A stretch of DNA of 64,000 nt from Psammoneis japonica (taxonomy: Eukaryota). A program made the translations under genes and the position numbers. The notes under the pieces are model-generated. The model was not told the DNA's origin, searched no databases, and saw only the letters and a program-made list of their open reading frames with translations. The stretch's first letter is position 1. Each line of letters opens with the position of its first letter. Where the stretch lies: the NCBI GenBank assembly GCA_008632985.1, contig QPGO01000020.1, positions 682,001 through 746,000 on the forward strand, written 5' to 3'. This document shows, one piece after another, positions 4,142-64,000 of this stretch.

Positions 4142-7100
4142 ACCTCCGCGACCACTGTTTCGAGTCATGCTCCCCTGGACTTTTGGCGAGTTCTCTCTCG
4201 TTGCGTGAACACAGTGGTTGACAGGAAAACAAGAGTCTGGCTTGAAGCCATTCCCAAGGGAGTGGAGCCCAAGCAAGTTGATTTGCAGAACCTTCTCTGT
4301 GTGCTGGCAATGGTCCTCACCTTTCTCTGGAAATTGCTGGCAAACGCTCTCGTGGGGAAGCAGAAGAAATGATGAGCAGGCGAGCATTGGTCGCCAAACT
4401 GTCTCAGGTTGCTCAGCCAACAGACAAGAGGTGCTGGCTTTTCCCCCACAAAGGAAGAGCCTTTGAGTGGCTGTCTCTCTCTCTCAGCTTGTGTCTGTTT
4501 TGATGTGACCCTGAGCTTCTTCTTCTTTGTGGCTGAGCAGCAGCGGCACTGGCTGCGTTCAGCTGTGACATTGGGGTGTGGAAAAGTGTCTCTCTCAAGT
4601 GAAGATGATTTTTCTGATGCCAAGAGGGCAACTCAAGTTGGGCAAAAACAGTGAGTGGGAAACACTGCAAAACTTTGGGGTTTTCCTGCTTTGTCGGGTG
4701 CAGTGCAGTTGTCACAAAAGAGCACACAGAGTGTGCGCTGTTTTGAAATTTTGGTTTTTGTCAATTGTCAATGCAAGGGGGAGCAAAGCTTTGTCCCATT
4801 GGCACAGTTTCCAGAACCCAGGGTCCAAGAAATGACAACAATGGAGCTGGAGAGGACTCAAAATCAAGCCTCGAGATGAGGACAATGCCTGGACCTGGGC
4901 CCAACTTGGCTGAGACTTTTGCAAGCAATGAGCCCATGAGGCGCTCCAAAAAGACTCAGTTTTTCATGCAACAAGAGGCAAGGCCATCAGCTGGTGACAG
5001 GCAGCAGGCCTCCATGAGCCAGTCTTGGCATTGACAAGTTGTCACGTGTTTCCACATTTTTGCCAGCAGCACTCATTTTGAACAGGACACTGCTGCAAGG
5101 TGGCAATGAACAAGTCTTGTTCATTGTCTTGTGGCCCAACAAACTCTTGCTTCACCAGCCCATCTGCTGCCTCTTGTTTCCAATGACAGCACTTTTTCAG
5201 TCAGTGCATGAGCGTTGGTGGTCAATTTGTGCCCTGCTCTTCCTCATGTTGAAACTTTTCTGGACTGCCTGTTTTGCCTTTGCTGCCAGATCCAATCCCA
5301 AGAAGAAGGCCCGATTGCAGTGTTGAGTGCTTTGCTTTTGAAATCTTGGTTTGCTGGCCCTGTTTTTGTTGCTGCCAGCTGTGTCCGGTTGGCACCACAA
5401 CCTTGTGTTGGCGTCAATCTTGACTGATTGTCGTGCATCCCTGCCACATCACACACAACATGATGCTCTGGGAGTGTGGGTTGGCTTGTTGCCAGAGTTC
5501 TTGTGGGGTGGAAGCAGTGCACAGAACTTTAAATGCAGAATTTGAGCTTTGTTTTCCAGTCAGTGCAAAGCTGCTGGGCTGCACTCATGTGTTCTCCCGG
5601 ACAGCCCAAATGTTGTTGGCTGCTTTCTTTGCTGGAAAAGAGACAATTCCATGCACTGGCACCAAACCGTCAACCAAGGGTGTCCTCCACAGCAGCTGTG
5701 ACACAGTGGCCAGCAAGGAACCCTGTTGCTGCAACCCAGTCATCTGCATCAAACTCAGCCATCGCTGGAGCCGCCAACTGCCTGACCAACATCAACACAG
5801 TTTTGCCTCTGAGATGTGTCACAAAGACAGAATGTCAGCAAACACACAGAGCCAATTCACTGACTGACAATGCACTCTTGGCATGCTGACATCATTGCTG
5901 CTCTTGTTGTCATCATTTGCTTCAAAAAGGCTGCCAGAGTTTCTGCCAGCTGCATCAGAAAAAGACTCAACTTGTCAGTTTGTGGCTCTTCTTCTGAGTT
6001 GCTGCCCAAATGCAGTCATCTTCAGGATTGTCAGTTGCTGGTGCTTCTGAGTTGCCCCCAAAGTTCTTTTCCAATTTGCTGGTGTCACACTGATCATGTG
6101 AAGTTCTTTTTTTTTTTGGCTGGGTCACAAGCAGAGAGTTGCACCACCAGCTGCAGAGCTGTTGCCATGACTGCCAAGTTTTCAGTGCAAAAGGGGCTGC
6201 CCCAGACAACAGCCTGTCTGATGACTCCAATCAAAAGGTGCACCTCTTTTGCGACAAGGCACACAACACTTTTAAATGTTTTGTGAGTTGTTTCCAGGGC
6301 ACCAGGTGAATTGTTGGAGCACTCTCCACCAAAGTTTTGGGGTGGCTGCAGAGCGCCACTCTGTTCTCTAAAACAATCTCTCTCAAAACTTTGAGCTTTG
6401 ATGTTGAGTCAGAATTGCCATCACTGCCTGCTGGCATGGTGGCCATTGATGTCACCAGATGGAACTTCAGTGCATTGCCTTCTCTGAGTTTGCTGCCATC
6501 ATGAGCCTTGCACATGATGCCCCCCACCATGAGAAAGGCAGAGTTGTTGTCACAACCTCACATCACAGCATTGTGGCCACACTCATCATGAGTGCGTTTT
6601 TGGAGCTTGTGTCTCAGGCAGAAACTGCTGACCAGGCCAAGATGCTGTGCACAATTCCAAGCTTTTGTCTCCAGCACAAACTCTCTGCTTCCTTGAGAGC
6701 TCCTCTCCCAAGAAACAGTTGAGCCGGTGCACTCAGCAGCCCACCCTTTCTCAATGAGCAAATGTCACAGCAATGGCGAGCATGTCAGATGACTTGTGCT
6801 GGTTTGTCCTCAATGCCACACATGCCACTGCAGAGTTGGCTGAAGTTTCTTTTAACAACAAGGAAGCTCTCATTTGAGCCTCAGAGTTGCTTGTTTTCTT
6901 AAAATTGCCTGGCATGACTGAGCCAATCAATCAGCAGTTCATTGTCAGAAGGTTTGAAGCATGGCTGGGTTGCCACAAACATTCTCCACAATCAATCTCC
7001 ATCATCCAACAGCTGGGGAGGCCTGAAGCTTGAGAGCACTCATTGTTGTCACAAGAGACTGGATGGAGTCAGATGATGGTTTGAAGCCCTGAGACTTGCA

Positions 7101-9605
7101 CGCCTCCACAAATGCCGCAGTGTCTCAATCGCTGTTGCTCTTGCCCACTGAAAACAGCAAACAAGCCCCCAATCACAAGCCCTCAAGATGATCTTTTCCA
7201 GCTGCTGCTGTGGTGCCTTGAGTCACAAATCCTCAACATGGTTGCCACTGGCTGCTGGCATCAGCTTTCAGATGCTCGGACAGTTTGTTGCACTCACAGC
7301 TGCTGTTGTCCTCTTCAAATTTCTGGGGGCTTGGGTGGCAACATGGAGAGATAAAAATGTCATCCCTGCACCAGTCTCCAGATCACTGCAGTCAGAATCA
7401 AGACATCTGCAGGGCTTCCATTTGGCTCAACCAGCAAGGCACCACTTCAAGAGTCTTGGGAATTTCACCAGGAGCTCTCATCTGCCAAAGAGACATGTTT
7501 CTTGATTTGCCTCTCATTGCAGATTTGATTGCCATTCGGAGTTGTTGGCAAGTGTTCATTGATGACAACTTGTGTCGACAAAACCTCAAAAAAGATGCTT
7601 TTTCAACTGTTGTGTTCTGCAGCAAATTTTGATCAAGACAGATGATCCCACCAAGTTGGAACAAGAAAGATCTTTTGGTCCTTGCACCTTGCATTGTCAC
7701 ACAGATTCTTGTGAGTGGAAATGTTGCAGTGCAAAGAGCGCCTCATGTGTTTGAAAGAATTGGCATTTGACGCATTTTGCTGCATCAACTTTGGCACGAT
7801 TAAATTGATTGCGATTCAAAGCATTTGCATGAATTGCAGAAGGGAAGAGTCGAGCAAACTTCTGTGTTGTAATTGCATCAGCAGCTGCAAGATTTGGGAG
7901 ATTCAAATGACCAGGATCATTGTTGACACCTCTAAGAAATTCTGTGACAGAAACCCAAACACTGTGGCTGCAGTCAATTGCAGCTTTTCCTGTGATTTTA
8001 GAAAGCATTCGTGGACAACTTGTCAAGACCACTCAACAGGCTCCTGGTTTTTGTGACAGCAGATGGGCTTGAATCTGTTCCCATGTGTTTGTTGAAGAAA
8101 AGTTGTCAATGACCACATGCCACACTGCCACACATTCAGTGCATGCTGTGACGGGACTTGGCATGATGGCTGCTGATGGCATCAATGACATTTCTGGTCA
8201 CACAGTCAGACAGTGACTGCTCTGATCTGATCAACCACACACAGCCCTGGACTGCAACATTCAACGTTCACATTTTCTTGAAGGTCACCTGTTGCCTGCA
8301 AGCAATCCAGTGGCATGGGTCTTTGTTCACACAGGCTGATGCAAACAGGAGCAGCAACAACATGCTTGTTGTGCGGCGGCACAACAATGGCGATGCTTTG
8401 TCATCCAAGAGTGAGCATCTGGTGGCCAAAGACACAAAGAAAACAGCATCGCTGCGCTGAAACAACTTGTTCATTGATCAAAAACCAAGATTGCATGCCA
8501 CCGTGGCACCATTGTCTGTCCATTCAGTGAGAACAGAAGAAGATGCAAAACCAAGTGAAGCAACAGAGATGAAAGTGGCAGAAGCAGAGGAAAGTGACTC
8601 GCACTCCAAAGGGTTGTTCTCAGGCTCCAGCCAAACAACAAAATGTGTGGGGGAGATGTGGAAATTTTTTAATGAGGGAATGAGGATCAGACAGGAATGA
8701 ACTCTTGTGCTTGCATCTTTTGGGATTGTCCCTGGTTGAGTGGTCCAGTTGGCAGTCTGCTTTTTTTGCAGATGACAATGCTTTCTGTGGTGGCAATGAA
8801 TGTGCCCTCCCTGATCTGTCACCACGGCATGGCTGACATTGCTGAGAGACAACACCACTGACAAATCAGTTGTTTGACAAGATGTTGAAGCCACAAGTCA
8901 ATCTTTGTCACAAGGACCACTTCCTTGGCTTCTCAGATCATTGTGCAAGGCAGCCGTGCACTTCTCAGGAGACCAAGAGACCTTGTGAACTGCTGTGACA
9001 TTTTGTCTGACAACAGAGGGTGCCATGTCATGGCTGTCACATGAACAATGTGGAGGTGACCAAAGCCACTTGCACACACAACATGTTCTGCGCTCATTCT
9101 TTGATGCAAACCAGCATCTGTCGGGAGACCAGCTGGGACAGAAGTCACCTCAGTTGGAGTGGCACAAACGCCATTCTGGTCAGAAGAAGCCTTGAGCTCT
9201 CTCGTGGCTTGCCAGGACCAGAAATTGACAGCAACAATGACATCAGCTTGCCAACCACAGAATGGCAGTTTGTGCCCGACAGTGTCCTGAGCAGGCAGCG
9301 TTGGCATGCACAACAAAAAATGGATGCACTGCATGAACAAGAAGACTGACAAAAACCAGCAAAGCACAGAAAAACAGGTCAGACATCATGTGCAAACAAG
9401 AATGACAGTGAAAATCGAGTCAACCAATGCACTGTGCTGCTTTGGCAAAAGAAAGCGAGTTGTCCAATGTGACAGGTTTGCCAGGTTGAAGTGTGACCTT
9501 GGCAGAGCTTTCGCTGCTTTTGGAGAATGACATTTGCTTTTTCACCCCAGCTTTGTGTTCTCTTCACATGTTCATTTGTTTCTGCTTTTTGTCATGGTTG
9601 CCCAC
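4142..9605. other. TpA-erased, CpG-poor decayed repeat block 1
   Basis: About 10 TA dinucleotides found by eye in 5.4 kb, with a strong CA/TG excess and no coherent ORF. TA returns abruptly at ~9609. Confidence 0.9.
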
Positions 9606-9709
9606 CTGTACATTGAAGGGTTTCCGCTAGTTGACCGTAGCACCATCACTCTTGTTACTACAGTAGGTGTTATATCATCTAAGAACCGCTGTCAAAACCG
9701 GCCTTCTTC

Positions 9710-12521: not shown

Positions 12522-15214
12522 AACAAGTATGCGAATCTTCCCAACCCCGTCCCTCTTCCTGTAATGCACTCAATCGTAGATTTGCTTTGTTGTTTGAAGT
12601 ATTGGATATGAAACACTTAAGGACGCAGTGCCTGGCGTTCAAGACTTAACGTCCAATGACCTTTTCTTGATTTTGGGGCTGGTACACTCAAGAGTAATCA
12701 TGTTTTAGGACAACTATCAGACCGCTCCGTCCTTTGGCGGAAGCCCAACATAGAAGGATGCTTGAGGTGACACCACGACCGAAGAATGGACTGGATGATA
12801 AAAGATTGAGTGGGCTCAAAATGTGGAAACGAAGGTACCTGCATGCCGGAGGGTACCAGGAGAGATGGTGGAATCAGTGCGACATGTCCGTGGTGATAAT
12901 CAGCACAATGACATCGAGGTGTCGCCTCGAGATTCAAAGTCGATCGGAGGGTAATGTAAAAGAGAGATTCTACTAGAAAGTCATGAGTCTGAAATTCTCT
13001 TTCAACCTGGAACGGTGTTCATGATGACGGCTGTCATTAGAAAGAATGAAAACAAGTCTCATTTGTTTCAATGTTCGAGCTTCATCAAGTTTTGACATGG
13101 GGGCGACATGTTGTTAGAAAGCAGCTGCAGCACGACGAATGCCCCTGACGCTGAAGCTGATACAGGAATCTTCCAAAGCTAGTGCATCCGACACAAGGTT
13201 CCACGCATGAATGGAGGCACCGAGCAGACTTGTTCCACAGGCCAAATGCAAGTGCAGAAAGGCTTTTCTGTGGGAGCACACTATGATCTCTAAGCCGGAC
13301 TAGCTTGGATTGAGTGATGCCATTGCAAGGGAACCCGCAGTCTGTGCTGGCAGTTCACTTGGCTGCACTGAGGAAAACTGTCAACCAGGTGCATGATGCC
13401 AGTTGGACAGAAAAGGAAGAGGCAAAACCAAAGTTGACTTGAATGATTGTCAAGACGGTTGTGGTGGGACTGCCAAAACCAAAGTTCACTCGAACAATTG
13501 TCAAGCCAGCTTCGGTGGGACAAAACGAAGGACACCTGTCATCTTTCCAAAATGCCTCAGGATTCTTTCGATGCCATCACTCAAAGGTGATGCCAACCTC
13601 CTCTGGCAGGCAGCCGATGGGCTGCAGAGAACTCAAGGCACCTGCAGTGTAATTTCAAATTTGAAAAGTGGTTTCGAACATTCAGTTTTGCACAAAATCA
13701 TCATTTTTTGGTGATTGGACAGTTTGACAAGTTGGTTGTGGTGCAACACCCTTGTGCATTTCTGTGACAAATCAGCAGCCACAACCCTTGCTTGCAATGC
13801 CAAAATCTCAGTGCATCAAAAACCAAAAGGCTGCACAATTCATGATGCTTTCACCACAATCAATCACATCCATGATGCACAGACAAACAATGAGACACAA
13901 TCGCTCTGCCAGCAAAGTTCCAATGGAAGTCATGGACTGAGCTTGAATGGCATGGAAGACTTCCAAGGGGAGGAAAAAAAGCCGGCCATTGACCAAAGCA
14001 GAGCTCAAATGCAGCGCGCAGCTTTCAAGAATTGGAAGCCTTCAGAAACGTCTCCAATGGCAGCTGCTCGTTCAGGTGACTGCTGTTCCAAACAAGCGTG
14101 AAACCTCCAATGTGCATTTGAGACCGTCGCGTTTGAAGGTTTGGCTGGAGCTTCCTGGGTGGTTGCCAATTTGCAGGGGTTTGGACAAATCAAGGCTGCT
14201 CCAGTGCCGGAATGACCATTCCCAATGCAATCACTTCGCAAGTGTCACGCAACACATTGACAGCCAGTCTTGAATGAATGTCTCTTTGTCCATGAGTGCT
14301 CGGGTGACAAGAGAAAATGCCCAAATGACAGGGAGTGCAGTTTTTGAAAGTGCCGTCATGCATCCTGCTGCTGTGCTGGTGCTGTTTCCAATCTTGAGGA
14401 GAGTGGCAGCCATTGCAGCATGGGAGTCTTTGGATGGACGGTTCACAGACACCTTTTCTGGCATGAAGAGAGAGTCCTCAAACCAAGCGCTGCATCCTCG
14501 GAAACAATGTCTTGTCATTCATGTGATGATGATGAAGTGAGTGTTGGCCTCACTTGACATCAGCTCCAGTCCTGAGTGGGGAAGTCAGAGAGCAAACTGT
14601 GCTGCACTGCTTCATCCGTGCTGTCATTCTGTCCCGCCTTTTTCAACATTGACAATTGACCAAATTTGTTTCTGCTTTGCTCTGCAACCACAGTTCCACA
14701 TGAGCCATCTGCTGTTGCATCTGCCAGCGCAACAACAGAGATTCCTTCTGATGAAAGCAATGTGTTTGGCCTGGATGAGGATCACGGCCAAGTTGTGACT
14801 GTCCCTGCAGCGGTGTCAACGGCGCAAGAATGCCTCATTGCGGATGACCGTGCCTCCAAGATGTTGTCAGCATTGGTGTCTTCATGGCAAGAGATCCCTT
14901 TTGACATGGGCAATGAGAGCTTTCCAGACCAGCACAATGTGGAGGGGCTGTTGTCAGTTGATGTGGAACACACAGAAGAAGCAGAGCACATTCAAGCACC
15001 TGTTTCACTTGTTGCAGACAGCAGTGCTTCCATTGTTCCAAGGCAGTCTGCTTGACTCAGAGCAGTGTTGGGAAGCATGTGTGTTCTGTCATCCACTGAT
15101 GGGTGAACTGTTCGAAGGTTGGCTGGAATCTTGAACCATCAAGCTCATGCAGTGAGATGGCTCAAGTGCCTGCGGGAACAAAGCAGCACCTGGGAGGAGA
15201 GAAGAACAGGAGTT

Positions 15215-15241
15215 GGAGAGAGAGAGAGAGAGAGAGAGAGA
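15215..15241. repeat. (GA)n microsatellite
   Basis: Direct reading of the GA run. Confidence 0.9.
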
Positions 15242-16225
15242 AATGGGGAGTGGAGCACGCAGAAAAGAGAAAGTGTTGATTGGCAGAGTCCCAAAGAGGT
15301 TGAGAGAGGAAGAAAATGAATTCAGGGAAATGGCGAGGCAAGAAGAAGATTGAGTTTGGTGAGGACTGCAGGCAGAACACTCACACATCCTTTGTTTGCT
15401 TCAGCCATTCCAAACAGACAAATTGAGTCTGACAGCAAGTTTTCTTCTTGCCACATTCTGGCTCCATGAGCATGAACAATCAAGGTGCTGTTGCTTTTGT
15501 GTGCAACGGTCAGCAAGTTTTGGGTGAGCAGCAACATTCTGTCAAGTGAGGAATCTTCGTGGCACCTGCAGTTTGGCACATGTCATGCACAGCATGCACC
15601 TCTGCATTCAACATTTCATTGACCACTCAGTGGTTGGTGATTGCAGACTTTTTTGTGTTGGTCAGTCGGTCGGGCAGTCGGTCCATCCACATTTGAAAGT
15701 TTGTCCCTTGGATTTTGGAATGGCATGGGTTGTTTAGTGCAAATGAATTGTTTGGATTCGCAGGATGACCGCTGAGGACATTGGAGGTCATGGGGACATC
15801 CTAAAATGTTGACAAATTCCCTGTGACAGGTGTGTGGAATGGTTTTTTAGGAGAGCTCGAAAGTGTTGTAAAATTGGCATTGCCGGTGTGGCATCTTGAA
15901 AAATGCACTCAGTTGTTTGTGAAGATGGTTTGTCATGAATTCTGCACAAAACAGTCACATTGGGAAAAACACGTTGAACAATGAGCGAGTTTGTGCAATG
16001 TGCTGTCATGGCAACAAATTGGAAAACAGAGTGTCCGTGCACCCAGCTGCAGCCCCAAAAATGGCACGAGACATCAAACACAACAATCATCCATGTCACT
16101 GGTGCGGTGGCCATGCCACTCTGCCGGCCCCGACGGTGGGGCCCTGAGCACATGCAGGCAACACAGCATGCAACGGCACACACCCACAAAGAAAGACAAG
16201 TGGTCAATGCTCCCCGCAGGCCTGG

Positions 16226-17060
16226 TTGCTCTTCTGTGCAAGCTCCCGCTGGCAACCTTCCGCGTGTGTTTCTACACGAGTTCTCATGCTGATGTCACCA
16301 TTCTCAGACGGCATTGATTTGGCTCCTACAAGCCCATTCTGTCCATGTTTGCCAATGGCACATTTTCATTGCAGCATGATGAGCAAAGTTCATCAGTGGA
16401 AAACGACGAGTGTCGCAGCCTGTTGGTTTGCACGCTGATTGTCATTTCTTGTAATTTCCAGTGCAAATTCCACACGGATCCGCAGATGCTGCTGACAATC
16501 TGCACGCCACTTCTCCGGCCTGCTTTTGTCCTTGCCAATTGGTCTTCAATGCTGCTTCCTTTTCTCACCATGCAGTCAAGTCCTTCACTCTTTGTGGTGC
16601 AAGTGCTGCTTCTGTTGCGGCCCTTTTCAGCAAGAATGTCAGTCATCCTTCAGAGTCATTTGACTGTCATCGATTTGCTGCTCCCATCGGTTTTTCTGTG
16701 CAAGATCTGGCATCATTGTCTCTGCATGTTGCCACTGACTGTCTGTGCTTCACTTCTCTGGACTGCTTTTGTCTTTGCCAATTGGTCTTCAACCCCATTT
16801 CTTTTGTCTGCCATGCAATCAAGTGCTTCACTTTTTGTGGTGAATGTGCTGTGCTTCTGTTGCGGCCCTGTTGAGCAAGAATGTGAGTCATCCCATGGCA
16901 CCATTTGCTTGTCTTCGGTTTGCTGCTCCCATCGGCTTTTCTGTGCAAGACCCAGCATTGTTTCTACATGCCATGAATGTTTTCTCCAACAACCTGCTTG
17001 TCTCACCTTCAAGGCTCCTTTTGTGGACCATGTTAAAAACCCATCCGAGTGCAATTGTCC
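16226..17060. repeat. Dispersed repeat copy 1 with internal ~240-bp tandem duplication
   Basis: Alignable by eye with 28425-29205; tgccaattggtcttcaa recurs at ~16533 and ~16776. Confidence 0.85.
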
Positions 17061-18404
17061 ATTGCAGCAGTTGTGGTGTGCCTTCTGTGGCTGTTGTCAA
17101 CAAGCACACAACAAATCCCTCATGTGGGTCATTCCTTTTCAGTCATCTTGGTGGGGTGTCACCTTCTGGCAATGCCCACTCCGTCCAATCCCATGAAAGC
17201 TCCTGCTGCACTCAACTGTGTGCTGGGGGTGTGGGTCAGCCGGTGCTGGCAAAGGAGTGACAGCACTTTAAACTCAGATCTGTTTTTTTTTACATTCAAC
17301 ATTTAGAACTCAGCTTTGAGGGTTTGAAAACTCAACAACAGACTGCCTTTGATGTTCCATGTTGGACAAAAAAGCACCAACGACAGTGGACTGTGTGGCC
17401 CTTGGAGTGCAAACAGATCCAGTCTTGCTTCTGCAATGAAGCACTTGATGATTTTAATGCCTTTGCCGATCGCATGTTTTCTGTTGGGTTTTCACAAAAA
17501 TGGCATGGTTGTGTTGGGAACATTTGGCAGGCATGCAGAGAGTTTTCAAGCCACACATTCAATTGTGAGTGCTGGAAACTCATTCCAGCAAGCATCGCTC
17601 CATGCAATTCTTGCAGTTCCATCTTGTCATGGCGTGACAATGCTCAAAATTTGCACATTCTTGTCAGCACCCAACGGACCCCTTGTTTTTCCAATGGATT
17701 GCTTGATGATTAAAAGGAATCTTTGTGTCGAATGTTTTCTGTTGGGGTTGAAAGCAATGTGCTGTCTTTGTCAGGATTTCAGGCATGCAAAAAGAGTTTT
17801 GAAGCCACTGGTTCAAATGCGTTCTGAAAGCTCGTGCCTTTGTGCTTGCAACGTGCAGCAGGCTTTGTTCGTTCAGTTTCAGCCCATCAAGCATTTTAAC
17901 TTTTTCTCTGGCAGGGCCCTGATTATCTTGCATTGCAGTTGCTGTGCGAACCAGTGCTTGCACCGCAACCAACGTCTTTTCAGCGTGAGATCCCCAATTG
18001 TCATGGATTTTGCAAAGGCGCCCCGATTGATTGTTCCCTCAGATCACATCTTGCCAAGGTTCGTACTGCATGGCGGTGGGCAAGCTAGGATCTTAACGCA
18101 TTGTACCTCGGTATGCACTTGACTGGTGGGGCTGCATTTGAAATGGACAATAGGAACAAGGTCCTAGTCTATCACTTTGCCTTATCGCACAGGTGAAAGG
18201 TAGCACCAGAAACAATGTTAGTTCATGCTCCAAACAGATTGAAGATTAGGATCAAAGTACATATCGCAAAGATAACATACTACGAAAAATAAAAAATGCT
18301 CCTGTTGACCAGCCTAAATAAAGCTCTATAGAGAGGGCATGTGCACACAAAGTCTATGGGACATAAAATGCCGCTTCGTCGTTGCTTCTAGATATTAGAA
18401 AGAC

Positions 18405-27500: not shown

Positions 27501-27621
27501 TGCTGTGCCTGTCCTCATTTCATGCTGGATGCTGCACAACTCATCCTCCAATCTGACACTCACCAACAACAATGGTGCGCCCCTGTCACAATTCACTTTG
27601 TTGTCCTGGCTGCTGGATGTG

Positions 27622-27645
27622 CAACAACAACAACAACAACAACAA

Positions 27646-27696
<51 letters not shown>
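27622..27696. repeat. Compound microsatellite (CAA)n(CAG)n(CAA)n
   Basis: Direct reading. Confidence 0.95.
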
Positions 27697-27699
<3 letters not shown>

Positions 27700-35268: not shown

Positions 35269-35328
35269 AACTCTACACTTGCTCACGTGCCCACCAACAA
35301 CTCGAGCGACACTGAACACTGTGAGACC

Positions 35329-43057: not shown

Positions 43058-43623
43058 AATGCGTATATCCATCGGATTGAGAAGACATGGTTGAAGTCGT
43101 GACGGATACTTTTGAAGTGGAACATCCTCAACATGGCGACATTCGCCGGTAACGAGCAACGCGCTTTCATGTCGAAGTCGAATGTAGTTCTGGAAGAACT
43201 GCATGAGAGTCGCGATGAGCCTGCTCGTGTCATTTGTGTCGTGCACCTCTTGTTGATCCAGTGCTCTAAGATAATCAGAATTCCAGTTATGCTTCAAGGC
43301 CTAAACGCCGTTCCAGAAACTGCATCGTTTGAGAGACAGTTGCTTCAAATGCGTATACCCATCGGATTGAGAAGACATGGTTGAAGTCGTGACGGCCATC
43401 CTCAACATGGCGACATTCGCCGGTAACGAGCAACGCGCTTTCATGTCGAAGTCGAATGTAGTTCTGGAAGAACTGGCTAAGAGTCGCAATGAGCCTACTC
43501 GTGTCATTTGTGTCGTGCACCTCTTGTTGATCCAGTGCTCTAAAATAATCAGAATTCCAGTTATACTTCAAGGCCTAAACGCCGTTCCAGAAACTGCATC
43601 GCTTGACAGACAGTTGCTTCAAA
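43058..43623. repeat. Tandem duplication of ~274-290 bp within a degenerate coding-like region
   Basis: Copy A 43058-43349 and copy B 43350-43623 are near identical, with one ~16-bp indel. Confidence 0.95.
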
Positions 43624-46429: not shown

Positions 46430-46659
46430 TCTTTGCGGCACGTACTAAATTTTGCACAAATTGTAATGCTTTTGCCGTTGTTGATGTTGAGAGAGAGAGA
46501 GAGAGGAAAAGAGCTAAAAAAGTGACAACGAGAATTTTCTGTGGCTGATGATAAGGCATTGAATCGTGTGAAGAGACAGGTGGTGTATCGGTCGACGCTC
46601 AGACAGTCTGTTCTTCGCACGCAATCAAATAGAAATCCTTGTGCGCGGATTTTCGCGCG

Positions 46660-49646: not shown

Positions 49647-50014
49647 TTTCGCGCGCACAGCCTACAATCTTGCGCGCAACAACTACCCCTTATTCGTACG
49701 ACTGCATTGTTAACTGTGTAATGCCCACTTTTCTCCCCTTGACACGCCTTGTGCCACTTTTGTGTGCCATACGACATCTACATACGCTAACACGGCTTGT
49801 GCCATGTCGTGCCAAAAAATTCAAGGCGAAACGATGGAGAGTAAATTCGCGCATTGCGCATGCCGAAGATCGCAAAAAGACGTTGCGACATCAACACCAT
49901 CCTCATCAACACCACCGCAACGGGGTAACAGAGAGAATACTCAATACACAGCGAACGGGAAAGATCCTTTGCCTTAGCGACTCTACAATATAAATTGAGA
50001 TTTCTTATTCTGAA

Positions 50015-51439
50015 ATGCGTTCTGAAGCATTGACGTTGTTGCTGTTGCAGCTCTGTGTCGTTTCAACGACTGCCTTTGTGACACCCCATGCAACACCAAA
50101 ACATACCGCCGATACTTTGTTATTGTTTGCACGTAAGAAAGCAGCGAACGATAACAATGAGGACGAGTCAAACGAGGTGGATCCTGCGAAGCGTGCCGCA
50201 CTGGACGGAGTTCTACAACAGATTGAACGCAGTTATGGACGTGGATCTATAATGAAGTTGGGAAATGCAGAGAATATGAGGGTAGACTGCATTGGCACGG
50301 GGGCGTTGACACTCGGTACGTTTCACCTGTGCGCAAGTATAATGTAGCGCTTAAAGGGATATGCATTCATGTGAGCTCAGTACGGATCTGTTACTTCTTC
50401 TTATGTGTTAGATACGGCGCTGGGTGGTGGATACCCAAAGGGACGTGTCGTTGAGATTTATGGGCCAGAGAGCTCTGGGAAAACTACACTCGCGCTACAC
50501 GCGATTGCCGAATCTCAAAAGCTTGGAGGAACCGCCGCCTTTGTAGATGCAGAGCACGCTCTTGATCCATCGTATGCCGGTAGCCTCGGTGTGGATATCG
50601 ACTCGCTCCTCGTGTCTCAGCCAGACTCGGGAGAAATGGCTTTGGATATCGTGGACCAGTTGGTGAGGAGCTCGGCCGTTGATATCATTGTGGTGGACAG
50701 TGTAGCAGCTCTAGTACCCCGTGCCGAGCTTGAAGGAGACATGAGTGATTCTCAGATCGGTCTACAAGCTAGACTCATGTCCAAGGCAATGAGGAAAATC
50801 ACGGGTTCTCTGGCTCTTAGTCAATGCACAGTCATTTTCCTGAATCAACTGCGTTCCAAGGCAAGTTCTTTTTCCTTTTTGTACAGCATCTCATTGCTCT
50901 CCAATTATACATGCCGTGCTCAAATTATCTTTTTGTTTCTTACCTAGGTCGGTGTCATTTATGGATCACCCGAGGTTACATCCGGAGGCAACGCCCTAAA
51001 GTTTTATTCATCGGTTCGATTGGATACGCGACGAAAAGAAATTCTCCCCGACAATGCCGGCATTCGCATCAAGGTCAAGGTGGTCAAAAACAAGGTGGCT
51101 CCTCCGTTTGAAGTTGTCCTTCTCGATGTATTATTTGGAAGCGGCATTGATACATTGGGCAACATTGTAGATGCCGCTTTGGATTTGAACGTGTTGGATC
51201 GCAAAGGTTCTTGGTATGCATACCAGGGATCAAATCTTGCTCAGGGGAGGCAAAATGTTGTCGAGTTGCTCAAACAAAATGAGGAATTGAGAGAGCAACT
51301 TGAAAGCCGAGTCAGGTTGGCTCTATCCGACATGGCGAATCCAAACGAAGAGTCGTCCGAGACTACTGCAGGTGAAGAGGCAAAGGTGGGTCGGACCTTG
51401 CCTAGCGAGATTATTGAAGAGGACACTTATCTCGAGTAG
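50015..51439 (+). CDS. recA: Plastid-targeted RecA recombinase; exons 50015-50315, 50412-50860, 50948-51439
   Basis: Signal peptide plus [60 protein letters not shown] and [11 protein letters not shown]. The second intron is GC-AG. Confidence 0.96.
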
Positions 51440-54630: not shown

Positions 54631-55084
54631 AAAACCCACCCGGCGCGGCGACGAAGCCCTTGCTTGCCAGCGTCACTCCGCTGGACTACACACTCATTCT
54701 CGGGGTCAGCTCAGCAGAAGGGATAGAGGCCAAGTTCACTTCCAAACAGGTCGACAAGCTCCTAATTTCTTGCAAGGAACTGGGGCTTGGCAGAGGCCGC
54801 CCATTTCAAGGCTCTCCCGTGGCACGATCCCAGGTTCAGCAGCAAATACGGAAAGCGCTGTATCATCACCTCCCGACGCGAGCTAATTGGTGATAGAGAA
54901 ACCACGTGGCAGTTGTGCCAACGTCTCGCGGTGTATTTCGGAATGCAAGCTCCCTGCGATACGCCCGCTACTCCTGTAAAGGTTCGAGAGGCCAGTCGCA
55001 GAGCTTCTATGTCGTCCTTCCGTGGAACCTATAAGAAGCGAGCTCGATTGGATCATTGATGAATATGTATGCTGTCAATCAGGC

Positions 55085-55401
55085 NNNNNNNNNNNNNNNN
55101 NNNNNNNNNNNNNNNNNNNNNNNNNNNNNNNNNNNNNNNNNNNNNNNNNNNNNNNNNNNNNNNNNNNNNNNNNNNNNNNNNNNNNNNNNNNNNNNNNNNN
55201 NNNNNNNNNNNNNNNNNNNNNNNNNNNNNNNNNNNNNNNNNNNNNNNNNNNNNNNNNNNNNNNNNNNNNNNNNNNNNNNNNNNNNNNNNNNNNNNNNNNN
55301 NNNNNNNNNNNNNNNNNNNNNNNNNNNNNNNNNNNNNNNNNNNNNNNNNNNNNNNNNNNNNNNNNNNNNNNNNNNNNNNNNNNNNNNNNNNNNNNNNNNN
55401 N
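55085..55401. other. Assembly gap (N run)
   Basis: 317 Ns. Confidence 1.
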
Positions 55402-58400
55402 CGCAAATACTCAACAACTTTTCTCGAAAGACACAACCCGCACGATACATAATACAGCAAAACATCAATTTGAATCATGGCACCGCAAGTATTGCAACAA
55501 GAGAGTCCCTTTGACGAGGTGGAAATCAGCAATGAAATAATGATGTCTTTGTAAACAAGTCTACTACCGCACCAGCATCCGAAAACAACGAGACTGTACC
55601 CTTTGGGAGACACCGCAAGTTTCGCATCATCGCCGTCATACCGGTTTCGTGGCGATTGTGATTGGAGTTTTCATCATTTTAACGGGTAATGCCAATCCCA
55701 AAGCTTTCTTTGTTACCGTTGATCCACCCGGCAAGGAGGAACCGGATCGTTGGTATGCAGCGTCCCACGTCGGGATTGCGTTTGCGTGTCGTGAATGCAT
55801 GCTGTGACGGCGAATGGAAGGCTCTGTTTGATGCTTCCCTCAGTGATTGGAACTCAGAGACATCGATTCGAGCGACACAGGATATGGGTTGTCAACCGCA
55901 AATGAAATGACTCAAGGTTTGCAATGGCAATTATGGCAATACCGATTGGCAAGGACTCAATACGATTTTGTTGAGACGAGAGTTGATTGTGTGGAGCACG
56001 GCGCGACTCAATGACGATCAATCCATGGATAGTGATTGAAAGTATTATTCAATGTGAGTTTTAATACTGTGCTGAGTCTTTGTTTTGTTGATTGTGCACA
56101 GTAGCGTTGTTGTTTGGGTGGTATATTTTGGTGTTTGTTTGGCGAAGTGTTGGTATTCTTTCGTCTCTCAAAACGCGCACCTCACTCATCTACTCTTACT
56201 CGATAGTCCATCCATTCTAATATTGATTTTAGGTGCCACGAATTGGGTCACGGAGTTGGTTTGCCACATTCCGACGAAAATCTTAACCGAGGTGACTGCA
56301 TGGATTACACAACCCGGCTCTGTTCCAACAAGCTGCCGGGACAGCACAATTTAAATATCCTCAAAAAGCTCTACGGAACGCCCGACGAGCCACTTGTGTA
56401 GTTCCGCCACCGACGTGAATGGTACTACTTCTAGAAACTCACGTCCCAATCGAAATGGCAATACTCGATGAATGGAAGACAATTGTTTCATGGTGACAAT
56501 TCCACCCTCATGGACGAGACAGTGAACGATAGCACCACCAGCACTATTCTACAACAAGTGGTGCTCATTTCTGCAACATGAAAAAAAGCTGCGCTGCTCC
56601 AGCCAGCAGCTCATGGCTGCTGATGCAGCTTGTGTGTGCCATATCATCATCCGCACTTGAACTTGGGGCACAAGTCGTGGTGCACCGCTCAATGCTGCAG
56701 TGTGTGGTATGTGTGCACTTTTCTCTCATATTGTCTCTCCGCGACAACGCAATGACCAACATGAGCAAGCTTCTGATGACCACGTTGTCCCTTTTGGCAT
56801 TCAGGCCACCGGACAGTGTACCAGCATCTCCAATGTAACGGAGCTCATTGGTGTCCTTGACGGCGACGACCCTAGATTCTCATATATCGGCACCGGCGGA
56901 ACCCGAAATCTTTGTCCGTTCAACTTCAACACTAAAGAAGCTCGGTATTTGCGGGCTTTAGCGATCCAGCTGTTTCGCTAACGTTGGTCTGTGATTCCGA
57001 TGACACAGGTGGAGATTGCGTCTTTGATTGCCCTTAGGCTTCCGTCCAAGGTAGACTGAACCTTCAGGAATACATCAAGATTAATGTCAAGCACTTGGCA
57101 ATGCTTGCCTCCAATAGAGGAAAATGGATCTTCAAGAATACGGTTGAGCGCCATTCTATAGGAATTACACCAGAGCGCACGGCAGAGATTCAGGGAGCTA
57201 TCTTTAACACAATGTAAGTCCAGTAAGGGTAATGATCGGTTGACGAAGCAAAGTATCACAAAGCTATAGAAGCTAAGACATTCTTTTTTGCGCACTTCTA
57301 TTTTCTACTCATTTCAACAGCACTGGTAGGGGAATTAGCTGTGGTGGCTCGTGCTCTGTATCCTACTCGACGTTTATCGGCTTGCGCAAACAAGGGGTGT
57401 CGGCTTTTGCCAATCTCAATCTGACGAATTGTTTGTTTCAGAACATTGCTCTCGGTGGTGGTGGAGCTCTTTAGGCAACAGTCTCTTCCCAGTACGCAAC
57501 TGCGAGTCACCAATTGCACGGTACGAGACAATTCCCAGATTGGTATTCCGGGCTTTGCGGTTGAGGGCAATGCCACTGTAACGTTCATTGGTCCTTCAGT
57601 GTTATCAACAACACTGCAAGGCAGCAGGCAGCTCCGGTTGTTCTTTTTGGAGGTGCTACTTCTAATGGTCTTTGCGACTCTACTATTGAGGGACATGTCA
57701 ATGTTCTAGATGGATCCGAGTGCAATGGAATTATCGTCCTTTCGAAAGGCGGAGTTTGCGAACCATGCTCAACTGACGCGCCGTCGTGATCCATGTCATC
57801 TGCCAGTCATTTACAGTCCAAGCATGGCGCAACGTATTTTTCTTTCATCAACCGATCCACAATGTATCGTGGCAGAGAGTAGTCGGTCAAGGCAAATTTA
57901 TTCTTCGGGCGGAAAAAAGCGCAGTAATAGCTAAAAACCACTTGCGCCCCCAAGCTGAAAGAGGGGGGCACCATGATTGTGACAGAGAAAATGCACTAAA
58001 AACCAGCTTGAAGATGTAGCAACTATGGCATCCAACCCAACTGCATGGCAGCAATAGACTCTACTGTAGCTACTGCTGCCTACTCTAGCTTTAGCTACGG
58101 TACTCTTACTCTAGCTAGAGTAGGAGAGAGAGTGCCGGCAGTGCTCCCGAGAAGGCAGGGCACCGGCAGCAGAGCAAAATGCTGGCAGTCGTACGTGAGC
58201 TGGGGTCGCGTTATGGTCGCGGATGCCTTATGCGGTGTTATCGTATTCCGCGACCCGCTACGATGACGTTTGCGTTGACCGATGTCGGCGTGGTCATCTT
58301 TTCTCGCTTGTTGACGAAGAGAATGCTACTGTACCCTGAAATTGAATGCAAGGCGACAAGCTTGGGGTACTCTGTAAAGTAGAAGTACATATACCTGACA

Positions 58401-61048: not shown

Positions 61049-61251
61049 TACAACAGCAGTAGAAGGGGGCATCCACGTTGACGACCTCCAAACAAACGAA
61101 ACAACAGCAAGGCTACAGTTTAGCTGGTATAATACCGTACCGTAGTCTACCGGTACCGCATGCACATGCCGGTCTTTTTGTTCTTTCGGCGCTTCGCTGA
61201 AAAATACCGACAGCCGACAGTGCGAGGGGTTGGACAGACGACCTCGCGCTA

Positions 61252-64000
61252 TTTTGTTTGGAGAGCTCGTGAGCCAAGACGACGTCATTCTTTCTGGGTT
61301 GGCACTGCCAGTGACAACAAACTAATTCCCACAATCCACAGATTGAATGACTGATTTCAGACCAACCATGCAAGCTTGAATGTGTCTCAACAGAGGTGCC
61401 AAAGCCAGCCATCACACCGTTGTTTGCCACACCCATGTGTCGTCTCATTTTCTTGCTCAGCGAGTCCAGTGCTGGGGCGGCGATGCAGCGTTGGTGAAAC
61501 ACTGGCTGCCCTGCTGCTGGCTTCTTCTTCTTCTTCTTCTTCTTCTTGCACACACACACAAGTGCAAGCACACACACCTTTGTCTGCCCCCCCAGCACAA
61601 TCAACAGCTTGTTGTCGAGCTTCATTTTTTTGGCGCATGTCAGTGAACCCATGTGGAGCCCACCTGCTCATTTCCGTGCAGCTCCATGATGCAATCTTGA
61701 AGGTCCGTCAAACAGCACACATGAGCTCAGAAGAAATCACAGTGGCACAGCAGCAAGGGATGAGGCTGATTTGAAGCCTTTCCCAACTCTCTCGATGTTG
61801 ACTGCAGCGCTGCTTTCACACGCGACAATGTTGCAAGATTTTGGCTTGGCAAAACCCACAATTTTTATTTTCATCATCACACTCCTTCAACAGCTGTTGT
61901 TTGATTGTGGCTCTGGCTCATGAAAAGAGGAGTTCAGCGGCGCTGTCATTGCTCACACATTTCTCAATGCAGAGACTCCAGCCATCCTTTCTGAAGCAAT
62001 CCAAAGGATCCAACTGTCCTTCTGAAGCAGCACAAAGGCTGCACAACCATCCTTTTGCACCTTTTGCAGCATCACAAAGGCTCCCAGCCACCACAGCTGG
62101 CAGCAACACAAAGACTCCAACCACCACAGGAGGTGGCAGCAGCACCAAGACTTCAACCATCTTTTCTGAAGCAGCAGTGCAAAGGCTCCAACAGCCCTTC
62201 TGCAATGGCACAAAGGCTGCAACCATCCTTCTGCAGAGCAGTGCAAAGGCTCCAACAGCCCTTCTGCAGTGGTGTGCAAAGGCTGCAACCATCCTTCTGC
62301 AGCAGCACAGATGCTCCTCCCAACCACCACAGCCAAGTGGCAGCAATGCAAAGACTCCAACCACCACAGCCAAGTGGCGGCAGTGCAAAGGCTCCAAGAA
62401 CTGTCCTGTCTGAAGCACCAGAAAGGCTCCAACACTGTCCTTCTGCAGCAGTGCAAAGGGTCCAAACTGTTGCAAGTGGCAGCAGCACAAAAGCTCCAGC
62501 AACCATCACAAGTGGCATCAGTGCAAAGGCACCGTGTGCCATTCACACGTCCACAGAAACAAAGCCACAAGAACAATTTGACAGCTCAACCACCGTCGTT
62601 CACATGTCAACAAAACTCCTGCAGTTTGTGCAAGATGGGCCACTCTCCTGAGTCATCATCATGAAAAAGCTGTTGGCATCTCATGCACATTTTTGACATT
62701 GAGCACAGTGTGGAGACAGGTGCCGCACGGCAGGTTGCCCTGTTTTTGTGCACTGCCTGAGTCGTTGGTGCTCGTTGAAATGATGACCTGCCTTGTGCTG
62801 TTTGTCTGAAGAGCTTGCATCAGCCAAAATGTCATTTTTTCTGGGTTGGCACTGCTGGCAGTGACAACAAACTAATTCCCGCAATCCACAGATTGAGTGG
62901 CCAGTTTTGGACTAACCAAGGAAGTGCCACAAAGCCAACCAGCACATCACAGCACTGTCTGGAGAGACAAGACACCCCCACGCACCAGCCACATCATTCA
63001 CATGTCATCATTTTCTTGCTCAGTGAGTCTTTTGGGGTGACAGTGCATTGTTGGCAAAATGCTGGCTCTGCCACTGGCTTCATTGTGGGCAGTGTGCACA
63101 CCCCCACAAACACACATCTTTCAGCCCAAAACAACCCTCCACATGAAAGGGCAGCTTTTTCACATCAGCAAAACAAAAAAATTGACAGGACTTTGTGCAA
63201 CACCGGCTGGCAACACCCAGCAGACACAACTGGGGGCAACAAGGAGGCAACACTTGGCACAGGATTTGTTGTGTTCTTTTTTTTGCTGCAACCACAGTGC
63301 CACACTGTGCAGCATTGGCAAAGGACTTTTGCACACTCAGAGTGCACAGCTCATCAGCAAAAGCAGCAACCCCCATCTTTGAGTTTGCGCTGGCCACCAT
63401 CAACACAAAAGGAGACAAACATTTGTGCTCTTTCTGGCACACTGCATCAAGAGTGAAAAGGTTGCAGCTCAAAGCAGCAAGCTCTTCATTTGTCAGCAAG
63501 CACAAAAAGGGAGAACTCACAAGGCTTGAAAACATGGAACAAAGATCAAATGGAGCCAGAAGTTGGCTCTTTTCTGCACCCTTGAGCCCAACAACTGCTG
63601 AAGCAGTGTTTTCACCACACAAAGTGAAGAACTTGGTTGGCCAATGGAAAGAAGGGGGTCATCAAGAGCCATTGAAAATGGACAGAAACAGTTTGGAAAT
63701 GTTGCAAAAGATGGTCTTTGACAGTGACATGATCTGCGGTGTGCACAGAATTTGCGCTGGGTGCTGTGTAGAAAACTTGCTGAATTGAGAGAAAATGGCT
63801 GGAAAGGATGACAAGCTGCCAAGCCAGAAGAAGTTGCTGCCAGTTGTTTGCTGCTAAAAAATGTTGCTTGTTGGGCTGAATGATGCAGTGCCATTGGTGG
63901 AGTTGCTCAAAATGGGCTGGTGAGAGGACCCAGCAAAATGGCTCACACACCTTTGGAGAAGGAAGGAGGGCATCAGCGCCAGAGGGTGTGCAGAAACACA
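61252..64000. other. TpA-erased block 6 with direct repeats (~61190-61620 and ~62740-63160)
   Basis: TA nearly absent; ctgggttggcactg...cagtgacaacaaactaattccc.caatccacagattga occurs at ~61294 and ~62841. Confidence 0.85.
61965..62530. repeat. Degenerate ~30-bp minisatellite (ccttctgcagcagtgcaaaggctccaac-like)
   Basis: caaaggctcc/caaagactcc cores recur more than 15 times. Confidence 0.85.

Follow-up and report, generated by a model that had tools for sequence, protein, structure and literature searches.

The window, i.e. the whole 64,000-nucleotide stretch of DNA analysed here (positions 682,001 to 746,000 of contig QPGO01000020.1 of the diatom Psammoneis japonica), contains six blocks almost devoid of the dinucleotide TA (Table 1). 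The flanking genes, too, assign the window to a diatom. Block 5 is a dead reverse-transcriptase (RT) element, one repeat is common to blocks 2 and 3, and block 3 also carries a fragment of a coatomer beta gene.

Table 1. Features of the window (positions of blocks are the refined limits of TA-free DNA; o/e, observed/expected)
Feature	Position	Strand	Remarks
Block 1	4141–9608		11 TA in 5.5 kb; o/e of TA 0.03, CpG 0.20, CA 1.82, TG 1.75; step edges
Block 2	13302–17896		o/e of TA 0.05, CpG 0.35; carries repeat common to block 3
Repeat copy A	16226–17059	+	in block 2; includes ~240-bp tandem units; 76% identity to 28425–29205
Block 3	22775–31256		13 TA in 8.5 kb; o/e of TA 0.02, CpG 0.18; step edges
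Repeat copy B	28425–29205	+	in block 3; partner of copy A
Coatomer beta pseudogene fragment	30426–30985	−	in block 3; ~residues 95–272 of 953; frameshifted; cellular gene
Block 4	35275–39623		o/e of TA 0.04, CpG 0.30; G-rich
Block 5	~46660–49646	+	multi-copy RT retroelement, dead, internally deleted; o/e of TA 0.04, CpG 0.79
RT open frame P0001	46684–49092	+	803 codons; 1 Tyr in 803 residues
Block 6	61324–64000		o/e of TA 0.03, CpG 0.20; runs past window end

Extent of TA depletion

The initial annotation described six intervals with almost no TA and with sharp edges, and counting bears it out on both points. Its intervals contain 70 TA in 29,042 bp (2.4 per kb; 1.6–3.6 per kb in individual blocks), where 1,193 are expected at the outside rate of 41.1 per kb (1,423 TA in 34,641 non-N bp). 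In 500-bp bins, TA amounts to 0–8 per kb in the six blocks versus 22–84 per kb elsewhere in the window. The longest run without TA, 2,085 bp at positions 13650–15735, has a probability of about 6e-38 per start at the outside rate. When 100-bp bins are used, all 11 edges examined are steps that take place within 100 bp. The right edge of block 1 has TA counts of 0,0,0,0,0,0 followed by 9,6,1,7,3,5 per bin, and that of block 5 has six empty bins followed by 7,4,2,7,4,3. The least sharp edges are the right ends of blocks 2 and 4, the former having TAs at 17897, 17924 and 18064. Within block 5, complete absence of TA starts at position 46858.

CA and TG are each 1.66–1.84 times expectation in blocks 1–4 and 6, over 2.7–8.5 kb and with TA o/e values of 0.02–0.05; in block 5, CA is 1.31 and TG 1.60 (mean 1.46). 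CpG o/e is 0.18–0.35 in five of the six blocks, and block 5 is the one that retains CpG. Thus the CA/TG excess noted in the initial annotation is present, but loss of CpG, which had been overlooked, accounts for about half of it. From background to blocks, TA falls from 40.8 to 2.1 per kb and CG from 53.4 to 18.5, and CA+TG rises from 149.5 to 218.2; the sum of pyrimidine–purine steps is nearly constant (243.7 vs 238.8 per kb). AA is undepleted in the blocks (o/e 1.22). This does not fit synthesis of the Pol eta type (WA>WG), one of the mechanisms initially put forward.

Contents of the blocks

The open frame of block 5 has 158 homologues, the best at 44–45% identity; their alignments span positions 46705–49509, and about 200 aligned columns are absent from P0001. 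The RT motifs QGDP and ADD are present, and the catalytic-loop residue preceding ADD is Cys. The block 5 copy has no match to the RVT_1 profile, and five homologues score 14.8–24.6 bits, below the 29.6-bit cut-off. PF00078 is listed in precomputed annotation for many homologues, and one UniRef name reads ‘Reverse transcriptase domain-containing’. Endonuclease, RNase H and integrase domains were not found in the element. A possible 9-bp direct repeat flanks it (46651–46659 and 49647–49655), and single positions are covered by 7–10 distinct contigs of sequencing run X1.

Many diverged contigs of this run are also drawn to part of block 4, and not to 38.3–39.7 kb, and summed contig depth is raised at 35.0–38.3 kb and at baseline over 38.3–39.7 kb, depth not being equivalent to copy number. 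The block 4 region has a GC skew of +0.34 at 38–40 kb and gave a weak zf-CCCH match alone in Pfam. For block 1, a Pfam search with open reading frames of at least 90 amino acids gave no match, and no terminal repeats were found in either the normal or the purine/pyrimidine alphabet. Block 6 has tandem repeats with 31–66-bp units at 62066–62470. No viral genes were found in the blocks in searches of their open reading frames against collections other than viral ones.

The coatomer fragment gave 11 matches in a search of representatives (best E 1.1e-9), ten of which bear Adaptin_N and one of which is a full coatomer beta. A tblastn search aligns it as three colinear pieces, each in a different frame (sum E 3e-24), and the match to coatomer beta in the PDB is weak (E 0.005). 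A conserved Tyr is now Cys, and five of 11 changes are of the CpG type. The fragment would be an extra copy of a cellular gene. The original description of all identifiable content as transposon or repeat is therefore correct for the RT element of block 5 and the repeat of blocks 2 and 3, but not for the coatomer fragment, and part of block 4 has no extra cover in run X1.

Evidence that TA was lost by mutation

Among 40 RT homologues, nine columns are at least 70% Tyr, and the block 5 copy lacks Tyr at all nine; it has Cys at six and His, Arg and Phe at one each. Other conserved residues of this copy are retained at 66–100%. Its Tyr content is 0.12%, versus at least 1.2% (median 2.09%) in 120 of 120 homologues. 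Over 264 conserved RT columns there are 69 changes. Single TA-type changes make up 21 of them (10 TA>TG and 11 TA>CA), and only six are A>G or T>C at sites other than TA. Across 79 loci related to the element, the median TA o/e is 0.59 and the lowest value 0.20.

The repeat copies of blocks 2 and 3 have CA in one and TG in the other at 36 sites in 778 aligned bp, whereas 2,000 column shuffles average 2.4 such sites and never exceed 9. This argues that conversion took place independently in each copy, after duplication. Strand choice at the discordant sites is random (17 vs 19; 19 runs vs 18.9 expected), and the 36 discordances imply about 92 ancestral TA+CG per kb, compared with 94 per kb in the window background. 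The copies also differ by CG/TG (10 sites) and CG/CA (nine). Tandem units inside single blocks show CA/TG discordances at 5, 9 and 10 sites, the last being among the internal copies of the block 6 repeats.

The Tyr columns, the near-equal numbers of TA>TG and TA>CA and the repeat discordances agree with the proposal, made at the outset, that TA is converted to TG or CA on either strand. The relatives of the RT element are Tyr-normal and not equally TA-free, and the substitution spectrum has an excess of TA>TG/CA; the initial annotation had named the opposite of both as grounds for giving up its proposal. Judged from fixed differences, loss of TA in the blocks is mutational and does not represent native composition.

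Bases flanking surviving TA

None of the 60 surviving TA is RTAY, which makes up 33% of background TA; 40 are YTAR, and 23 are TTAA, which is 3.7% of background TA. Three of the RT family's 79 environmental loci, picked post hoc for low TA, have the same bias of residual TA, with RTAY at 3 of 65 vs 2,883 of 9,788 (Fisher p 8e-7). The flank that sets the rate may be the base 3′ of the edited A, to judge by product counts in blocks 1–4 and 6; in block 5, and likewise in the three loci from the environment, the products are roughly equal relative to the family baseline. The flank dependence, with RTAY absent from the survivors, was missing from the initial annotation, as were CpG decay and the coatomer fragment.

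Two probable mutational processes

The blocks probably consist of silenced, mostly duplicated or mobile DNA of the diatom nucleus that was reworked in situ by two mutational processes. The first would be a fast, DNA-level change of T:A to C:G at TpA only, giving TG or CA according to the strand struck; it would work site by site, without strand tracts, end at the segment edge, and depend on flanks, with RTAY struck first and TTAA last. The second would be a slower change of CpG to TpG/CpA, as expected of 5-methylcytosine deamination in methylated DNA. Jointly, the two would turn every pyrimidine–purine step into CA/TG. Coding capacity would be ruined by changes of Tyr to Cys/His, Leu to Pro, and Arg to stop, His, Cys or Trp; TA erasure by itself would create zero stop codons.

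The processes are separable, as block 5 has a CpG o/e of 0.79 with a TA o/e of 0.04, and its near-total loss of TA with little CpG decay suggests that the TpA process far outruns methyl-cytosine deamination. When the two processes are applied to the window's own background, the fit to observed dinucleotides improves from r 0.79 to 0.97; as residuals of the simulation, observed AT is lower (50 vs 61–65 per kb) and GC higher (76 vs 63–64).

As effector we favour, tentatively, a TadA/ADAT2-type adenine deaminase that would act on DNA and be recruited by silencing state or homology. No effector gene is present in the 64-kb window. Perhaps TA erasure can be termed repeat-targeted and a genome defence.

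Comparison with known systems

The first process, by analogy, matches the TpA-only hypermutation measured in mutation-accumulation lines of Bigelowiella natans. Of the 231 de novo mutations in two viral regions of B. natans, 230 are A>G or T>C, with all GC-biased ones at TpA; genome-wide, 124 clusters show depletion of TpA and enrichment of CpA+TpG, and hypermutation proceeds at roughly 1000 times the baseline of the genome, at a rate that differs between lines (Mettrop et al., bioRxiv 10.64898/2026.01.13.699255). According to this preprint, A>G and T>C occur at TpA only and yield TpG or CpA by strand, as in the blocks, and the affected regions are likewise discrete and adjoin normal DNA, many being unannotatable and some host-derived. 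B. natans is a chlorarachniophyte (rhizarian), whereas the host here is a diatom (stramenopile). The TA o/e values of 0.02–0.05 are near saturation, compared with 0.45 in an NCLDV region of B. natans, and the targets that could be identified comprise a retroelement, a repeat family and a pseudogene of cellular origin rather than inserts of giant viruses and virophages (Mettrop et al.). Strong CpG decay accompanies TA loss here, and the word CpG does not occur in the available preprint text; a flank hierarchy is found here, and that text contains no trinucleotide or flanking analysis. The rate was measured de novo in B. natans, whereas here the process is deduced from fixed differences. It should be pointed out that the CA/TG mean of block 5 is just below the CA+TG cut-off of the preprint. 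No report of TpA hypermutation in diatoms was found in the literature, and the initial annotation knew of none in this group; the same process is on record for B. natans (Mettrop et al.).

Fungal RIP resembles what is seen in the blocks in that transitions occur at one dinucleotide, in confined segments and on both strands, and inactivate transposons; a cellular gene copy was struck here at least once. The chemistry and direction are opposite, however: RIP changes CpA to TpA and enriches TA, whereas TA is destroyed here, and the RIP signature of raised TpA and lowered CpA/TpG is contradicted by the counts per kb given above. In addition, strand choice in the blocks is random site by site, unlike in RIP. 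In blocks 1–4 and 6, deamination of 5-methylcytosine accounts for the loss of CpG and for about half of the rise in CA/TG, but it cannot remove TA, and block 5 loses TA without CpG loss.

ADAR (A-to-I, on RNA) and APOBEC (C-to-U, on cDNA) of animals likewise edit mobile or foreign nucleic acid, and ADAR, as the preprint of Mettrop et al. cites, prefers a U on the 5′ side. Their substrates are RNA or nascent cDNA, and the signature is confined to one strand, whereas here both strands are affected equally, after DNA duplication, and the sense strand of the RT frame carries both products. Very-short-patch repair in Escherichia coli changes T to C at a TA-containing word through T:G mismatch processing, and CTAG is scarce there and CA/TG words are in excess. 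This system is bacterial and genome-wide, has one pentanucleotide context and is not block-limited; unlike the scarcity of CTAG in E. coli, CTAG is outside the fastest classes here.

Alternative explanations

Many RNA viruses avoid TA and CG and have an excess of CA/TG, and with this familiar pattern in mind the elements might simply avoid both dinucleotides natively or by selection. This has next to no likelihood, given that conserved Tyr residues became Cys or His, including the catalytic-loop Tyr that is now Cys, that the RT family has the Tyr and TA contents described, that copies differ by CA/TG discordances, and that the cellular gene fragment is altered alike. A sequencing or assembly artefact is equally hard to credit. 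Logan contigs of run X1, which were separately assembled, have 0 differences to the TA-free stretches 36141–36794 and 39010–39703, although this run, the sole read set found, could come from the very sample that was assembled and hence is non-independent. The pattern is also block-limited, flank-dependent and sensible at the codon level, and we know of no sequencing-platform error that yields such a pattern.

Biased repair is improbable too, if less so. A T:G-mismatch glycosylase or endonuclease of the MBD4/TDG or Vsr type would favour G:C at TpA in methylated heterochromatin; CTAG loss in E. coli is a proposed result of such repair. The coincidence of TA loss with CpG decay in five of six blocks points to methylated DNA, sites were struck independently with random strand, and the flank dependence is like duplex recognition of a tetranucleotide. 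On the other hand, TA is almost gone from block 5 with CpG little decayed, a general AT>GC drift is absent, as the AA value indicates, and the line-variable rate in B. natans, some 1000 times baseline, would be hard to obtain from repair bias alone (Mettrop et al.). Editing at the RNA level is very improbable. Here an ADAR-like, UA-preferring A-to-I activity would act on retroelement transcripts, which would then be reverse transcribed and inserted pre-mutated; block 5 is indeed an RT element, and sharp edges are natural if mutation precedes insertion. However, sense-RNA editing yields TA>TG only, and the RT frame, read on its sense strand, has TA>CA about as often (11 vs 10). The discordances among tandem units within blocks imply conversion after DNA duplication, and the mutations of B. 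natans originate in situ, within DNA that is already integrated (Mettrop et al.).

Significance

The absence of TA has practical consequences. Without TA there can be neither TAA nor TAG stops, and long spurious open reading frames and Tyr-less ‘proteins’ arise that mislead gene callers. Mutated domains escape profile searches; Pfam missed the RT and the coatomer fragment alike. Relative to the available text of the B. natans preprint, the near-complete saturation, a rate well above CpG decay, and a retroelement and a cellular pseudogene as targets are new. So is the flank hierarchy, with RTAY fastest and TTAA slowest, which any candidate enzyme must reproduce.

The findings suggest that the disabling of unwanted DNA by TpA erasure extends beyond one alga. 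If the process is the same as in B. natans, TpA hypermutation is present in two distant SAR branches and possibly in further organisms, in view of the three of 79 environmental loci. Comparative genomics would then be open to the search for the effector, as would diatoms, among which some are transformable. A bolder and rather doubtful proposal is that stramenopiles and rhizarians have in common a conserved editing system dedicated to genome defence, of which TpA erasure is the result. In it, homology or silencing marks would direct an RTAY-preferring DNA adenine editor to transposons, to viral inserts and even to additional copies of cellular genes. If true, the system would do the work of fungal RIP by the opposite chemistry, and nature would possess a DNA editor that changes A to G specifically at TA.

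TA-free blocks and their limits

Six blocks of the window are nearly devoid of TA, as the initial annotation claimed, and the counts bear this out. The intervals drawn in that annotation hold 70 TA in 29,042 bp (2.4/kb; 1.6–3.6/kb in single blocks), where 1,193 would be expected at the outside rate of 41.1/kb (1,423 TA in 34,641 non-N bp). In 500-bp bins, TA per kb is 0–8 in the blocks and 22–84 in the remaining window. The longest stretch without any TA measures 2,085 bp, which has a probability of ~6e-38 per start at the outside rate. The limits of the blocks are sharp, with edges that are steps no more than 100 bp wide, and the G+C content (~0.48) is the same in the blocks as outside.

Features of the window, in order of position
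Feature	Position	Remarks
Block 1	4141–9608	initial annotation, 4142–9605
Block 2	13302–17896	initial annotation, 13305–18060
Repeat common to blocks 2 and 3	16226–17059; 28425–29205	76% identity
Block 3	22775–31256	initial annotation, 22740–31255
Spurious ORFs (examples)	24225–24857; 24238–24840; 61802–62661	overlapping frames and strands
(CAA)25 microsatellite	27622–27696	inside block 3; 97% matches
Coatomer read-through	29889–30887 (−)	block 3
Block 4	35275–39623	initial annotation, 35280–39870
G over C skew	38001–40000	right part of block 4; +0.34 to +0.35, CA well above TG
Tandem duplication	43056–43623	outside blocks; 274 bp, 96% identity, TA content normal
Identical 9-bp direct repeat	46651–46659; 49647–49655	either side of RT element
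Block 5	~46660–49646	initial annotation, ~46670–49635
Open frame	46684–49092	block 5; 803 codons
RecA gene	50375–51436	bacterial type; split across two frames
Assembly gap	~55.07–55.41 kb	TA-free gap spans 55068–55408; 317 N in whole window
Block 6	61324–64000	to window end; initial annotation, 61252–64000

Conversion of TA and CG to CA and TG

A point that the initial annotation did not stress is the very low CpG content of the blocks. The CpG observed/expected ratio (o/e) is 0.18–0.35 in blocks 1–4 and 6, and 0.79 in block 5. From background to blocks, TA falls from 40.8 to 2.1 per kb and CG from 53.4 to 18.5, while CA rises from 75.1 to 110.0 and TG from 74.4 to 108.2. Taken together, the four pyrimidine-purine steps keep their total (243.7 vs 238.8 per kb), which gives the picture that both TA and CG have been turned into CA or TG by transitions.

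A simulation on the window's own background, in which 95% of TA and 75% of CG are converted to TG or CA at random per site, raises the correlation with the 16 observed dinucleotides from 0.79 to 0.97 and lowers the RMSD from 20.4 to 6.8. The residuals are a real AT below, and a real GC above, the simulated values. In blocks 1–4 and 6 the AT o/e is 0.66–0.84 and the GC o/e 1.22–1.41, which exceeds what TA plus CpG conversion predicts; in the same comparison block 5 has neither an AT deficit nor a GC excess. These residuals may stem from how the inserted DNA was originally composed.

Independent conversion of repeat copies

The repeat common to blocks 2 and 3 has 146 mismatches over 778 aligned positions, and 125 of these are transitions. 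Seventy-two mismatches make up 36 dinucleotides with CA in either copy opposite TG in its partner; 2,000 column shuffles average 2.4 such dinucleotides and never exceed 9. Control discordances in the same alignment are few (AC/GT 5, AT/GC 2, TA/CG 0). On the assumption that every TA or CG was converted separately in the two copies, with TG and CA as random outcomes, the 36 discordances imply ~72 ancestral TA/CG sites, or 92/kb, and the background TA+CG is 94/kb. The choice of strand shows no tracts, with 17 TG and 19 CA sites in 19 runs (18.9 expected). Tandem units within single blocks have 5, 9 and 10 CA/TG discordances, likewise in excess; in a tandem repeat of 96% identity that lies outside the blocks there are none. 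The blocks have undergone a TpA-specific transition process that acts on both strands, site by site, and after DNA has been duplicated.

The tandem duplication outside the blocks has three dinucleotide differences of TA vs TG among its 11 mismatches, too few to call, although this duplication may conceivably be young and just beginning to be hit.

The reverse transcriptase element of block 5

The 803-codon frame of block 5 has 158 homologues, with a top identity of 44–45%; the named ones are all from diatoms (Cyclotella atomus and Fragilaria crotonensis). Many homologues have a precomputed reverse transcriptase (RT) domain, and their alignments cover 46705–49509. In the homologues RVT_1 appears only below threshold and no second domain is present, so the element is not classed further.

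Nine columns carry Tyr in at least 70% of 40 homologues; in the block 5 copy they read Cys six times, His, Arg and Phe once each, and in no case Tyr. Cys stands in place of the Tyr directly before ADD, the catalytic motif. Tyr makes up 1 of the 803 residues, vs at least 1.2% (median 2.09%) in all 120 homologues listed. Other conserved residues are retained (Phe 10/13, Trp 8/9, Gly 33/36). Leu is changed to Pro at 7 of 35 positions and Val to Ala at 3 of 13, consistent with CTA>CCA and GTA>GCA. The block 5 copy is identical at 195 of 264 conserved columns and differs at 69. These differences comprise 10 TA>TG, 11 TA>CA and 7 CpG-type changes, 10 other transitions (six of them A>G or T>C at sites other than TA), 15 transversions, and 16 columns with two or more changes. 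The similar numbers of TA>TG and TA>CA show that the strands were struck about equally. By this comparison with homologues, the TA loss is mutational. The frame lacks ~200 aligned RT columns, and it is open though the copy is dead, because neither TA>TG nor TA>CA can make an in-frame stop.

The RT element in block 5 has multiple copies. Assembled contigs (Logan) of sequencing run X1 number 7–10 distinct contigs per position over block 5, vs 1–4 elsewhere, and many have internal deletions. Their summed depth, which does not equal copy number, is 410, 855, 1,340, 2,417 and 2,311 from 5′ to 3′ across the block. The 9-bp direct repeat around the element was noticed after the fact and is possibly a target-site duplication. 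No poly(A) tail is present at the element.

Block 5 has lost ~90% of its TA relative to the family baseline, with essentially zero CpG loss. In the older blocks, ~95% of TA and ~74% of CpG are gone. Thus, TA erasure is much faster than CpG decay, which it outpaces, and does not require that decay to come first.

Flanking bases of surviving TA

The process depends on the bases that flank TA. Of 60 TA left in the blocks, 23 (38%) are TTAA, vs 3.7% of 1,351 background TA; other survivors include CTAA (9), TTAG (5) and CTAG (3). GTAT, ATAC, GTAC and ATAT, together 33% of background TA, are absent among the 60. When scaled to length, survival is 0 of ~383 expected for RTAY (R, purine; Y, pyrimidine), 1–6% for mixed classes, 5.5% for CTAG, 17% for CTAA/TTAG and 54% for TTAA. 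An additive half-site model matches these values; for instance, 0.54 and 0.055 have a geometric mean of 0.17.

Product counts in blocks 1–4 and 6 pointed to the nucleotide 3′ of the edited A as the one that sets the preference. A simulation concurs, with an RMSD of 5.7 under this rule, 6.8 if rates are uniform and 8.4 if the rule is turned around, but the analysis is confounded by CpG decay and by its uncertain baseline. When 36 related loci serve as family baseline, products in block 5 and three environmental loci are roughly equal, and the assignment is not borne out. The codon-level events are ascertainment-biased for the purpose, and the flanks of CA/TG-discordant sites are uninformative. 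The flank hierarchy is solid as it stands, without assignment to a strand or flank.

Among 79 metagenome loci that encode relatives of the RT, TA o/e has a median of 0.59, and no locus reaches the depletion seen in the window; it should be pointed out that one of the two search patterns required Tyr and is therefore biased against erased copies. Three loci (L039, L041 and L057), selected after the fact by their low TA, are partly depleted (TA o/e 0.19–0.28). In L039 there is a step at the element edge: the flank has 106 TA over 2,500 bp, and the element (2501–5470) has 28 over 2,970 bp. Residual TA in these three loci is biased as in the window, being RTAY at 3 of 65 sites vs 2,883 of 9,788 in the other 76 (p 8e-7), and YTAR at 23 of 65 vs 20% (p 0.005).

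Other contents of the blocks, and flanking genes

The coatomer read-through in block 3 matches 11 proteins (best E 1.1e-9), 10 of them with Adaptin_N and one a full coatomer beta. By tblastn, residues 175–343 of one match lie on 30967–30435 in three pieces and three different frames, and a PDB sequence search with this frame gives coatomer beta weakly (E 0.005). Eleven of 34 conserved sites are changed, five by CpG-type changes and one from Tyr to Cys by TA>TG. By homology, the end of block 3 is a fragment of a cellular gene, presumably an extra copy, and therefore the process marks non-mobile DNA as well.

A Pfam search of 149 stop-free ORFs of at least 90 aa from the blocks detects neither a transposon nor a viral domain; apart from noise, its sole match is a weak zf-CCCH. 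This blank result is weak, since the RT and coatomer fragments were also missed by Pfam and were found later by homology. In blocks 1, 3 and 4, neither LTRs nor inverted ends appear by self-BLAST or by a transition-blind purine/pyrimidine comparison. A stop-density scan finds a clear former reading frame in block 5 only, and purine periodicity is too weak for mapping old coding frames. A PDB sequence search with one frame of block 3 has no matches, nor do Rfam and tRNA scans of the window. It is speculation that the (CAA)25 microsatellite was once (TAA)n, altered by TA>CA.

As TA-free DNA has no TAA or TAG, all six blocks contain spurious ORFs of 200–350 codons, whose translations are rich in Cys and His and lack Tyr. 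Such ORFs can mislead gene callers.

Matches of the flanking genes indicate a diatom. A delta carbonic anhydrase has its best named matches in Corethron and Seminavis, and the named matches of a fucoxanthin-chlorophyll protein are all from diatoms (e.g. Chaetoceros tenuissimus, 83%). None of the matches approaches 100% identity, which suggests a species that lacks a public proteome and hence one other than Bigelowiella natans. The RecA gene is probably organelle-targeted. A contig of a second sequencing run, X2, connects 50314 to 50411 over a GT..AG interval in this gene, which indicates a 96-bp intron, and from this spliced joint X2 may be RNA-derived. X2 is near-absent over block 5 and 38.3–40.3 kb; this is not counted as evidence.

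Process and precedent

Mutation-accumulation lines of Bigelowiella natans provide a precedent (Mettrop et al., bioRxiv 10.64898/2026.01.13.699255). Of 302 nuclear mutations, 231 are in integrated giant-virus and virophage regions, and 230 of the 231 are A>G or T>C, the GC-biased ones all at TpA. Mutations arise at ~6e-7 per site per generation, and activity is restricted to some of the lines. The genome has 124 clusters depleted in TpA and enriched in CpA+TpG, and the TpA-poor genes are enriched for RT, endonuclease-RT and DDE Pfams. To the extent of its text, the preprint describes the same phenomenon as that of the window blocks. That text does not treat CpG, trinucleotide or flanking context, or diatoms, although the supplementary mutation tables may include flanks. 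Open-access papers and bioRxiv yielded no report of TpA hypermutation in a diatom.

The process would be enzymatic and aimed at silenced or duplicated DNA, and the CpG decay would reflect methylation. Error-prone synthesis by Pol eta (WA>WG) is ruled out as the cause, as AA is not depleted. The effector may be an adenine deaminase acting on DNA, and an ADAT2 homologue is the effector proposed in B. natans (Mettrop et al., bioRxiv 10.64898/2026.01.13.699255). At the level of sequence, an adenine deaminase would be indistinguishable from a thymine-modifying enzyme on the opposite strand. The TpA erasure in P. japonica is real; rather than being categorically new, it joins a kind described in 2026.
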